The position numbers and the translations under genes were made by a program. The notes beneath the pieces are model-generated. The model saw only the letters and a list, made by a program, of their open reading frames with translations, did no database searches and was not told the DNA's origin. This document shows positions 7,572 through 11,254 of a stretch of DNA of 29,610 bases, one piece after another. The stretch lies in IMG/VR virus record IMGVR_UViG_2541047745_000005, positions 1-29,610 of that record; one strand, written 5' to 3'. The DNA is from a virus (lineage: Duplodnaviria > Heunggongvirae > Uroviricota > Caudoviricetes). Each line of letters begins with the position of its first letter. Position 1 is the first letter of the stretch.

Positions 7572-7716
7572 TATATCTGAATTTCACAGCGCATCTCACG
7601 CGCATATTAACGAGAGCCTTTCAGTAAGCGAGCCTGAGAAATGCCGTTATAGGTGGCGACCTCTCTCGGGCGGCTTTTCTGTGAGACAGGCTCACTTTCT
7701 AAAAGGTAAAGACGCA

Positions 7717-8259
7717 ATGAACTACCCAACCGTTGTTAACGATATAGATTTCAGAGACCTAATTTTTGTAGCAAACAACGATCCGGTTACAGATTCTTTT
7801 ATGGTGGCAAAAGCATTTGGAAAGCTGCCGAAGAACGTAGTTCGTGACATTGAGCGAACCATAGAAGCTTGCCCTCCTGAGTTTGATACAAAGCTCAACT
7901 TTGAGCTTTGCTATAAAAACAATGAGTTACAGAATGGTAAGCCGCAAAAATTCTACCGTCTCCGCAAGGATGGGTTGATGCTTTTGGTTATGTCCTACAC
8001 CAAAAAAGAAGCAATGCGTATCAAAATTGCTTACATCAACGCATTTAACTGGATGTACGCCATGCTTCAGGTTGGTCATCGTCAATTTGAAGAAGAGAGA
8101 AATGCCGTAATGCTGGAGTACATGAAAGAGAAGGATGTTGCCAGCATGTCAGGTCGCCTGCTTAATCGCTGGGGAAAAATTAAGAAGCCTCAGCTACTGG
8201 CGAGAATTGAACGCCTTGAACAGCACGGGCAAACCGTAATTCCCGGACTCACCAATTAA
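7717..8259 (+). CDS. Rha-family phage regulatory protein (putative)
   Basis: N-terminal region (VVNDIDFRDLIF...VAKAFGKLPKNVVRDIERTIE) resembles the Rha domain; AT-richer than neighbours; lone gene between lysis and packaging modules. Start taken at ATG 7717 (AAGG RBS) rather than GTG 7681. Confidence 0.55.
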   Translation: MNYPTVVNDIDFRDLIFVANNDPVTDSFMVAKAFGKLPKNVVRDIERTIEACPPEFDTKLNFELCYKNNELQNGKPQKFYRLRKDGLMLLVMSYTKKEAMRIKIAYINAFNWMYAMLQVGHRQFEEERNAVMLEYMKEKDVASMSGRLLNRWGKIKKPQLLARIERLEQHGQTVIPGLTN

Positions 8260-8545
8260 CGGCAGTACCGCGAAACAACCCAAGCCAGTAAGTGGGGAAA
8301 TAACACTGGCAGCCACTGAAAGATGAACCCCCTGCCTGATGGCAAAAAAGATTCTTTGTGGTGGCGGACTGATGGAAAGACATCGGTTATTGCAGAGGCC
8401 ATTCAATGAGTGGTCTCGACAATGGCTTATACCATGCACGGGATAACTTAACTGATATCCCTTTTAACGGATAAACGGAGCCAATAATGGCAGAAAATGT
8501 CGGTATTATGGCAGTGAAATTTGGATAAATCGGAGATTAGTACAT

Positions 8546-8896
8546 ATGCCGCCACGAATCCCAAAAGCCTGCCGTGTTCGCGGCTGCCGCCATACCACTA
8601 CTGACCCGTCAGGCTACTGCGAAAGCCACAAAAGCGAAGGCTGGACGCAATATAAGCCAGGTCAGTCCCGTCATCAGCGCGGTTATGGTTCGAAGTGGGA
8701 TGTTATCCGTGAACGTGTGCTGAAGCGTGACAAAGGGCTGTGTCAGTTGTGCCTGCGTGTCGGTGTGGTGCGTGAGGCGAAAACCGTTGACCACATCATC
8801 CCTAAAGCGCATGGCGGCACTGATGCAGACTGCAATCTGCAGAGCCTGTGCTGGCCGTGTCATAAGGCGAAGACGGCCCGTGAACGACTGAAGTGA
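8546..8896 (+). CDS. HNH endonuclease (terminase-associated)
   Basis: Cys pairs and His motif (CRVRGCRH..., VDHIIPKAHGG...CNLQSLCWPCH); position immediately upstream of terminase genes, as in HK97-like phages; GGAG RBS. Confidence 0.8.
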   Translation: MPPRIPKACRVRGCRHTTTDPSGYCESHKSEGWTQYKPGQSRHQRGYGSKWDVIRERVLKRDKGLCQLCLRVGVVREAKTVDHIIPKAHGGTDADCNLQSLCWPCHKAKTARERLK

Positions 8897-9021
8897 TAAT
8901 AATTCTCAACTGTCTGAGGGGAGGGGCGGGTCAAATCCCTGTGACCTGACGTCTTCCGGACTGCCCGCCCCATCGTTTTTTTATACCCGCGAAAAATGAA
9001 ATTTAACCAGGAGTGCCGCAT

Positions 9022-9507
9022 ATGGCTGGAACGGCGGGGCGTTCCGGGCGTCGCCCCAAGCCAACGGCGCGCAAGGCGCTGGCCGGAAACCCCGGCAAGC
9101 GAGCCCTGAATAAAGATGAACCTGTTTTTACGCCCATCAAAGGTGTTGAGCCACCGGAGTGGTTCGCAGAAGAAAATCTCCCTCTCGCCACGATCATGTG
9201 GCAACTGACAACCAAAGAACTCTGCGGTCAGGGCCTGTTGTGCGTGACTGACCTCGCGGTGCTTGAGCGGTGGTGCGTGGCCTACGAGTTCTGGCGACGT
9301 GCCGTGAAAAATATTGCCAGACAGGGCAACACCATCACCGGTGCAATGGGCGGCAGGGTCAAAAATCCGGAGCTGACCGCCAAAAAAGAACAGGAGTCCG
9401 AGATGAGCAGTACGGGGGCAATGCTCGGACTCGACCCCAGCAGCCGCCAGCGTCTGATTGGCCTGGCGGGGAAGAAGAAAGCCACTAACCCGTTTCTGAC
9501 AATCTGA
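9022..9507 (+). CDS. terminase small subunit
   Basis: AGGAG RBS at 9009-9013, 8 nt before ATG 9022; basic N-terminus; directly precedes the large terminase subunit. Confidence 0.7.
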
Positions 9508-9520
9508 AAATCATCGAATC

Positions 9521-11254
9521 ATGAGCCGGAAATCTTACCCCAACGTAAATGCTGCCAATCAGTATGCCCGGAATGTCGTGCGCGGAAAGATTGTGGCCTG
9601 CCAGTTTGTGATTCAGGCCTGCCAGCGCCATCTTGATGACCTGATGGCGGAAAAAAGTAAGTCGTTTCGTTACCGCTTCGACAAGGACCTGGCTGAACGG
9701 GCCGCGAAATTTATTCAGCTGTTGCCGCACACCAAGGGGGAGTGGGCATTCAAACGGATGCCCATCACGCTGGAGCCGTGGCAGCTATTTGTGATCTGCT
9801 GTGCGTTTGGCTGGGTCAATAAAGGCACCCGGTTGCGCCGCTTCCGGGAGGTGTACACCGAAATCCCCCGTAAGAACGGCAAATCAGCAATCTCTGCCGG
9901 TGTTGCCCTGTATTGTTTTGCCTGTGATAACGAGTTTGGCGCGGAAGTGTATTCCGGTGCCACGACAGAGAAACAGGCGTGGGAAGTCTTTCGCCCGGCG
10001 CGACTGATGTGTAAACGCACACCCATGCTGACGGAAGCGTTCGGGATTGAGGTTAACGCCTCAAACATGAACCGTCCGGAGGATGGCGCGCGGTTTGAAC
10101 CGCTGATCGGCAACCCCGGTGATGGCTCATCACCCCACTGTGCGGTGGTGGATGAATATCACGAGCATGCCACCGATGCGCTTTATACCACAATGCTTAC
10201 CGGGATGGGGGCGCGACGTCAGCCACTGATGTGGGCCATCACCACCGCCGGGTACAACATTGAGGGGCCGTGCTACGACAAGCGGCGGGAAGTCATCGAG
10301 ATGCTCAACGGCTCGGTGCCTAACGATGAACTGTTCGGGATCATCTATACCGTTGATGAAGGTGACGACTGGACCGACCCGCAGGTGCTGGAAAAAGCCA
10401 ATCCAAATATTGGCGTGTCGGTTTATCGCGAATTTTTGTTAAGTCAGCAGCAGCGTGCGAAAAATAACGCCCGTCTGGCAAACGTCTTTAAAACAAAACA
10501 CCTCAATATCTGGGTGTCGGCGCGTTCGGCGTATTTCAACCTGGTGAGCTGGCAGAGCTGCGAGGATAAATCACTGACCCTTGAGCAGTTCGAGGGGCAG
10601 CCGTGCATTCTGGCCTTTGACCTGGCGCGTAAGCTGGATATGAACAGCATGGCGCGACTTTATACCCGCGAGATTGACGGTAAAACGCATTACTACAGTG
10701 TGGCCCCGCGCTTCTGGGTACCGTATGACACGGTGTACAGCGTCGAGAAAAATGAAGATAGACGGACAGCCGAACGCTTTCAGAAATGGGTGGAAATGGG
10801 CGTCCTGACCGTTACCGATGGTGCAGAGGTGGATTATCGCTACATCCTCGAGGAGGCCAAAGCGGCGAACAAAATCAGCCCGGTCAGTGAGTCACCCATC
10901 GACCCCTTCGGGGCGACCGGGCTCTCACATGACCTTGCTGATGAAGATCTGAATCCCGTCACTATCGTCCAGAACTTCGCCAATATGTCCGATCCGATGA
11001 AAGAGCTGGAAGCAGCGATTGAATCGGGACGCTTTCATCATGACGGCAATCCCATCATGACCTGGTGTATCGGCAATGTGGTCGGCAAAAACATGCCAGG
11101 TAACGATGATGTGGTGAAGCCCGTCAAAGAGCAGGCGGAAAACAAAATCGATGGTGCAGTTGCGCTGATTATGGCGGTTGGCAGAGCCATGCTGTACGAG
11201 AAAGAAGACACGCTGTCTGACCACATTGAGTCCTATGGGATCCGCTCGCTTTAA
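9521..11254 (+). CDS. terminase large subunit (HK97-like)
   Basis: 577 aa; ATPase region then nuclease region (VVDEYHEH, acidic motifs); canonical position before the portal gene. Confidence 0.85.

Follow-up and report, generated by a model that had tools for sequence, protein, structure and literature searches.

The closest known relatives of the locus reported here are the Shigella serotype-converting phages SfI, SfII, SfIV and SfV. The virion DNA termini of SfI have been sequenced directly by run-off, which yielded reads that lack 10 nt, 5'-TGCCCGCCCC-3', relative to the prophage, and the authors conclude that packaging is of the cos type, like that of SfV (PMC3636060). According to the paper on SfIV, the phages SfI, SfII, SfIV and SfV all have the same cos site (PMC3851460). 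Phage HK97 has 10-nt 3' overhangs (PMC9410871, Figure 1 legend); the Discussion of the same paper gives 10-nt 5' ends for lambda and 12-nt 3' ends for HK97, lengths that are apparently swapped relative to its own legend. In one of two models for HK97, the HNH protein gp74 cuts one strand of cos and the large terminase cuts the other, and the minimal site for the small terminase (TerS) spans +15 to +29 (CTAACCCGATTTTTT), with base contacts at T16 and at the G:C pair at position 21, plus an A-tract (PMC11331095). HK97 gp74 has been described as a non-specific nuclease. Xu and Gupta reported that the cos-linked HNH nickases of phages and prophages (phage gamma, Geobacillus virus E2, phi105, BsuW23I, Bth193 and Lrm1) cut CG^GT, equivalent to AC^CG, and accept the variants ACTG, ACCC and ATCG (PMC3592412).

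We analyzed a 29,610-nt stretch of viral DNA (IMG/VR record IMGVR_UViG_2541047745_000005), referred to as the window, to which all coordinates apply. A first-pass annotation had proposed an HK97-like arrangement in which the HNH gene is the last gene before cos, so that the gap between the HNH gene and the TerS gene is where the packaging site is expected. The order HNH-cos-TerS-TerL was confirmed by the open reading frames, by Pfam domains and by homology to HK97 gp74 and gp2. The HNH protein is 45% identical to gp74 over 42 aa, and its best solved relative is the HNH protein of Geobacillus virus E2 (5h0m, E 6e-11). The large terminase (TerL) is 26% identical to gp2 (E 6e-31). TerS is 97-98% identical to the SfV/SfI-type protein, and its gene is preceded by a ribosome-binding site, AGGAG, at 9009-9013. 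The features of the region are as follows.

8546-8896, + strand: HNH endonuclease gene, 116 aa, last gene before cos (Pfam HNH, E 4.5e-15).
8918-8937, + strand: G-box GGGGAGGGGCGGGTCAAATC, a conserved subsite of cos towards the right end, from relatives and scans; it holds the left arm of the dyad (8923-8930).
8938-8961, + strand: 24-nt spacer, constant in length but not in sequence, with GGAC at its end, from the G-box-anchored comparison.
8958-8965, no strand assigned: nick motif GGAC^TGCC (bottom strand GGCA^GTCC), probable HNH nicking site, from conservation and nickase specificity.
8962-8971, + strand: cohesive end TGCCCGCCCC, 10 nt, probable 3' overhang, from the SfI run-off gap, the phiP27 cos-site and record ends.
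8976-8982, + strand: T7 tract, +5 to +11 of the virion left end, with an A/T tract at the same place in relatives.
8984-9004, + strand: putative small-terminase recognition site TACCCGCGAAAAATGAAATTT, +13 to +33, from its resemblance to the HK97 TerS site.
9022-9507, + strand: small terminase gene, 161 aa, P27 family (Pfam Terminase_4, E 6e-21).
9521-11254, + strand: large terminase gene, 577 aa, HK97 family (Pfam TerL_ATPase and TerL_nuclease).

Upstream of these features lies a lysis cassette (6433-7373), within which an Rz1-like ORF is nested at 7126-7332. Between the lysis cassette and the HNH gene is an ORF at 7681-8259 (+) whose domains, Phage_pRha and ORF11CD3, are those of a Rha-type regulator or an antirepressor-like protein.

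The ends of related phages locate the cohesive end within the gap. By megablast against phage records, the region is 93-98% identical to SfV, SfI, SfII, SfIV and several E. coli and Salmonella phages, and several phage records break inside the HNH-TerS gap. The last bases of the SfI record are TGCCCGCCCC, and the record restarts at the next base. In the GenBank record of the Stx2e phage phiP27, a more distant relative, a misc_feature labeled 'cos-site' consists of CGCCCGCCCC and occupies the position homologous to 8962-8971. Alignment by flanking motifs places the ends or starts of the linear records of HK97, Edwardsiella phage EPP-1, Burkholderia phage phiE125, Proteus phage Pm34 (whose record is in reverse orientation) and Pseudomonas phage D3 in this same register; for D3, whose overhang is 9 nt, and for phiE125, which has a published overhang, the comparison is one of record ends. 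The record of Burkholderia phage vB_PR2b ends 2 nt beyond the expected end.

Published work on near-identical phages thus shows both the position and the sequence of the cohesive end. We estimate a probability of about 90% that the site is the already-published cos of an SfV/SfI/P27-type prophage with an HK97-like, HNH-assisted terminase. The locus has the HNH-TerS-TerL context, the mapped cohesive end and the combination of G-box, 24-nt spacing and AC^YG motif that place it among HK97-like, HNH-assisted cos sites, and it is in this respect an ordinary site that has already been characterized. The expectation that the packaging site lies in this gap was borne out by the SfI termini, the phiP27 cos-site and the statement of identity in PMC3851460, and the comparison with HK97 and SfV that the first-pass annotation had asked for found the same register in HK97 and, going by the SfIV paper, the same cos in SfV. 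The cohesive-end position is known here from the termini of relatives, and the prophage of the window could itself be defective. In one related sequence (IMGVR_UViG_2660238222_000001), a 4-nt deletion upstream of TerS falls within the cohesive end, giving TGCCCCCTCG instead of TGCCCGCCCCATCG; this may represent a packaging-dead prophage or a sequencing error.

The overhangs are probably 3', because the absence of the 10-mer from both SfI run-off reads implies recessed 5' ends, and this polarity agrees with the 10-nt 3' overhangs of HK97 (PMC9410871). A G-rich start, GGGGCGGGTC, had been called loosely reminiscent of the lambda cohesive-end sequence in the first-pass annotation. This resemblance did not hold: the cohesive end is instead the C-rich right-arm sequence TGCCCGCCCC at 8962-8971, its likely polarity is 3' rather than 5', and the lambda cosN 12-mer had no match at up to 3 mismatches in 8897-9021, its matches across the window being at chance level.

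The dyad that had drawn attention to the gap was reproduced in full, including its separation of about 33 nt, the T7 run and the 125-bp distance from the HNH stop (ORF 8546-8896) to the TerS ATG (9022). The repeat finder returned a left arm, GGGGCGGG (8923-8930), and a right arm, CCCGCCCC (8964-8971), which are complementary at 8/8 positions and 33 nt apart; the right arm is followed by ATCG and then by the T7 run at 8976-8982. The cohesive end consists of the right arm plus TG. When the gap was shuffled 5000 times with dinucleotides preserved, 7.3% of the shuffles contained a perfect 8-bp inverted repeat with arms 3-60 nt apart; the whole window contains 43 such repeats, only 2 of which have all-G/C arms. 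The fold of the gap (-34.1 kcal/mol, z = -0.64 against shuffles) is no more stable than that of shuffled sequence. By itself, the dyad symmetry is statistically unremarkable and constitutes weak evidence; the special status of the site comes from the comparative and published evidence, not from symmetry.

Taken together with the T7 run, the dyad could be read as a Rho-independent terminator that ends the lysis/HNH transcript before the head genes, an alternative also raised in the first-pass annotation. Such terminators share with the dyad a G+C-rich inverted repeat near a T run, the minimum-free-energy fold contains all 8 G:C pairs, and the hairpin at 8923-8971 (-24.3 kcal/mol) is followed by the T7 run 4 nt past the stem. 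That 4-nt gap and the 33-nt loop, however, are atypical of a terminator, the z-score of the gap fold (-0.64) also argues against one, and relatives without the stem still have the T tract. The promoter/terminator scan detected no promoter-like site in 7500-10000 and nothing in the gap, leaving the dyad uncalled, yet it called a canonical terminator-like hairpin after the lysis genes at 7548-7567 (+; AGCCTCGC-ATTC-GCGGGGTT, then TTTTT), about 175 nt past the end of Rz at 7373. Searches with Rfam (E up to 1) and ARAGORN gave no RNA family or tRNA in or near the gap. The pairing of the arms is also not conserved, as described below, and its changes are uncompensated. Neither the scan nor the conservation of pairing supported the terminator alternative, which we consider extremely unlikely; the hairpin at 7548-7567 is the better terminator candidate.

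Comparison of 80 distinct combinations of G-box and overhang indicates how little of the pairing is maintained. All 8 Watson-Crick pairs are kept in only 7/80 combinations, 7-8 of 8 pairs are kept in 18/80, and the mode is 3/8; no compensatory changes between the arms were found among the 80 combinations. An identical G-box is found with the overhangs CGCCGCCTGA, CGCCGCCTAA and CGCCCCCTTA, with which 3-4 of 8 pairs are kept, and across the overhangs found with the same G-box this number can drop to 2-4 of 8. Conversely, the overhang TGCCCGCCCC also occurs beside G-boxes with which 5-6 of 8 pairs are kept, including natural window-type variants that have GGGGGAGG in the left arm (6 pairs kept). 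The dyad is perfect (8/8) in the window lineage and in phiP27; it is missing from the HK97, phiE125, EPP-1 and Pm34-type sites, despite their mapped or record-anchored ends.

These data also bear on whether the inverted repeat functions in DNA, either as two half-sites for a symmetric terminase/HNH assembly or as a cruciform that presents the nick sites. The perfect repeats of the window lineage and phiP27, and the 18 of 80 combinations that retain at least 7 pairs, would fit such a role, and the partial symmetry of lambda cosN offers a parallel. The modal pairing of 3/8, the HK97, phiE125, EPP-1 and Pm34-type sites that have no repeat, and the identical overhang beside the natural GGGGGAGG left-arm variants all speak against it, as does the asymmetric placement of the arms relative to both nicks. 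We consider a function of the repeat in DNA very unlikely. Because 8/8 pairing is rarely kept and no change is compensated, the dyad is, on this comparative evidence, an incidental by-product, a lineage-specific coincidence of a G-rich box and a C-rich overhang placed 24 bp apart, and pairing between the left arm in the G-box and the right arm in the cohesive end appears to be dispensable.

The feature that is conserved is the G-box and its distance from the overhang. The G-box is separated from the start of the overhang by 24 nt in every case compared, these being HK97 (GCAGGGGGGGGGATCAAATC), phiP27, EPP-1, Pm34, phiE125 and D3. In the conservation profile, it is the block with the highest information content in the region, a profile that is partly circular since its scorer rewarded G content, AC and YGCC, and for which a scan with the G-box only served as the non-circular check. 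The window site scored 22 and is the sole site scoring at least 19 within the 29.6 kb. Among 57 loci found by way of the HNH protein in a one-genome-per-species collection, with the architecture sought downstream of HNH, the full G-box, 24 nt and AC^YG were present in 49/57, compared to 0/57 reversed decoys; the failures include 2 truncated contigs and 3 Burkholderia/Paraburkholderia loci in which a G-run and GGAC^CG are present in the raw sequence. The scan of IMG/VR with the G-box pattern GGGGAGGGGNNNNNNAAATC gave at least 121 matches, in at least 120 loci. Among the matches listed, 100/121 were on the same strand and between the HNH gene and the TerS/TerL pair. For the 67 distinct sites in packaging context among these listed matches, spacer positions 23-24 read AC in 53 (approximately 4 would be expected by chance) and AC^YG was present in 48, most of the remainder having AC shifted by 1 nt. 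The G-box lies anywhere from 14 to about 490 nt past the HNH stop and at a constant distance from the nick, which indicates that the G-box belongs to cos and not to the HNH gene. As judged from these alignments, the comparison reveals a fixed cos architecture of which the dyad is not a conserved part, and the conservation of the G-box suggests that it may have a role in cos.

Several loci show variations around this arrangement. In the HNH-ascertained loci L231, L232, L234, L242 and L244-L247, HNH and the G-box are separated by extra ORFs, some of them small and Cys-rich (zinc-ribbon-like) or HNH-like, and the distance from the G-box to the nick is still 24 nt. The Paraburkholderia/Burkholderia loci L257-L260 and the right end of phiE125 (L273) keep GGGAC^CGCC and an upstream G run. 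In some betaproteobacterial relatives the overhang is followed by a second G-rich block (AGAGGGGGGGGT.AAAG), and in these the G-box may have been duplicated or rearranged. One IMG/VR sequence (IMGVR_UViG_2711768073_000020) contains two complete cos regions, at 3487-3506 and 6358-6377, 2871 nt apart, each consisting of a G-box, an overhang and TerS-side sequence, with a TerS gene after the first and an HNH gene before the second; possible explanations are remnants of prophages in tandem, a duplication and an assembly error. Neither Serratia phage Bigdog nor Klebsiella phage KLB5 has a G-box at its right end, either because these records are not cos-anchored or because the phages use a different system.

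It is possible, although we think it somewhat unlikely, that the G-box is a third, hitherto undescribed subsite in the cos of HNH-dependent HK97-like packaging systems, a cosQ-like positioning or termination element at a cos whose two strands are cut by two enzymes. This proposal rests on the conservation of the G-box from Escherichia/Shigella phages to D3 and phiE125, on its independence of TerS type and on its placement 24 bp from the AC^YG nick, the sequence of which agrees with the specificity of HNH nickases. As a site for IHF, the G-box is a poor fit to the IHF consensus, and with regard to a G-quadruplex it contains three G runs only. Full-text queries with the overhang or G-box sequences retrieved unrelated papers only. 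No open-access paper text that we found contains the G-box together with the word 'terminase', and older subscription literature may differ; the HK97/HNH packaging papers examined do not mention a fixed-spacing G-box or the agreement between the nick sequence and HNH specificity. The G-box is the only element here that is possibly under-described, and we do not claim priority for it.

The motif at the downstream end of the spacer is consistent with cleavage by the HNH protein. None of 39 representatives departs from A8960 and C8961, a result obtained with the partly circular scorer and confirmed by the non-circular G-box scan, and AC^YG at the bottom-strand nick corresponds to CR^GT when the nicked strand is read. 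Among relatives, there is no conserved sequence at the top-strand cut. A non-conserved top-strand cut combined with a conserved AC^YG fits the two-enzyme model for HK97 (PMC11331095), and by analogy the bottom strand would be cut by HNH and the top strand by TerL. The assignment of a strand to HNH is uncertain because HK97 gp74 is described as non-specific.

On the left-end side of the overhang, the sequence varies with the small terminase. The T7 tract has counterparts in P27 (AAATTTTT), EPP-1 (AATTTTT) and HK97 (TGAATTT), and is present whatever the upstream stem; from this comparison we take it to be an A/T tract that belongs to the cos region rather than the tail of a terminator. Past it, the putative TerS site has the core ACCCGCG-AAAAA at +14 to +25, the window reading TACCCGCG-AAAAA at +13 to +25. 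Its CCCG block is offset by 3-4 nt from that of HK97, and the window TerS is without sequence similarity to HK97 gp1; its fold is similar to that of HK97 TerS, with weak Foldseek E-values. The block downstream of the overhang co-varies with TerS type across relatives, being ACCCGCGAAA in the window/P27 type, ATCGCCGCAGGTTAGAAAAC in the Pm34 type and CTAACCCGATTTTTTT in the HK97 type, and one G-box serves all of these. By analogy with HK97, the TerS site is predicted to lie just inside the left end. When the window was compared with loci having 98-100% identical TerS (L026, L040, L045, L052 and L057), sequence rightwards from TTCCGGAC (approximately 8955-8961) was essentially invariant, whereas several diverged alleles were seen for the spacer, for the flank of the G-box and for the 3' half of HNH; this difference between an invariant TerS side and a diverged HNH side indicates a mosaic (recombination) boundary at the cos nick region.

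These results suggest the following mechanism for the cos. The two strands of concatemeric DNA would be cut 10 bp apart, the bottom one at 8961/8962 within AC^YG, most likely by the HNH protein, and the top one at 8971/8972, most likely by the nuclease of the large terminase. These cuts would leave the 3' overhang TGCCCGCCCC and make 8972 the first position of the virion left end. Just inside that end and past the T7 tract, ACCCGCG-AAAAA (+14 to +25) is the predicted binding site of the small terminase ring, which would, as in HK97, mark where packaging initiates and stall the motor so that it terminates. A further conserved element of cos would be the G-box (8918-8937), which lies 24 bp before the nick, is independent of TerS type and may be read by TerL, HNH or the portal.

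The cos module was found in 1195/5426 (approximately 22%) complete E. coli genomes, and for annotation the cos assignment fixes the ends of the virion genome in a prophage family of that abundance. The analysis also serves as a warning against annotating this hairpin as a terminator. A G-box placed 24 bp from an HNH-type nick motif, together with a swappable TerS site, could guide the biochemistry of HK97 packaging, in particular work on the roles of gp74 and of sequences upstream of the cut.

Among known systems, lambda is like the window in outline only. In its cos, a staggered nick site lies between a TerS site towards the left end and an upstream element towards the right end, and lambda has a 12-nt 5' overhang, no HNH protein and a TerS of Nu1 type. 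The window differs in having a Terminase_4 TerS and an HNH gene, and cosN-like sequence is absent from its gap.

The correspondence with HK97 is closer. The two share gene order, a G-box (GCAGGGGGGGGGATCAAATC in HK97), the 24-nt spacing, GAC^CGCC and a 10-nt overhang, along with homologous TerL and HNH proteins and a similar TerS fold. In HK97, the TerS site is CCCG and an A/T tract located a few turns inside the left end, and its counterpart in the window is putative. HK97 differs from the window in its overhang (CGCCGCCAAA), in having no dyad, in a dissimilar TerS sequence, in the 3-4 nt shift of the CCCG block and in the distance from the end of HNH to the nick, which is approximately 309 nt compared to 65 nt in the window. 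Phage phiP27 shares with the window the G-box, the 24-nt spacing, GGAC and the downstream ACCCGCGAAA, and its 10-mer CGCCCGCCCC differs in the first base only; its gap is approximately 79% identical, AAATTTTT replaces T7 and the TerS-side sequence differs.

SfI, SfV, SfII and SfIV are the nearest of all, the HNH-cos-TerS DNA being 97-98% identical to that of the window. Position +1 is A in the window and SfV and G in SfI, position 8939 is C or T, and the HNH 3' flank occurs in two allelic forms. The SfV and SfIV records are linearized at window position 8955, 7 nt upstream of the mapped overhang. The G-box, the spacer and the 10-nt cohesive end TGCCCGCCCC are the same in these phages as in the window, and the ends of SfI have been mapped experimentally.
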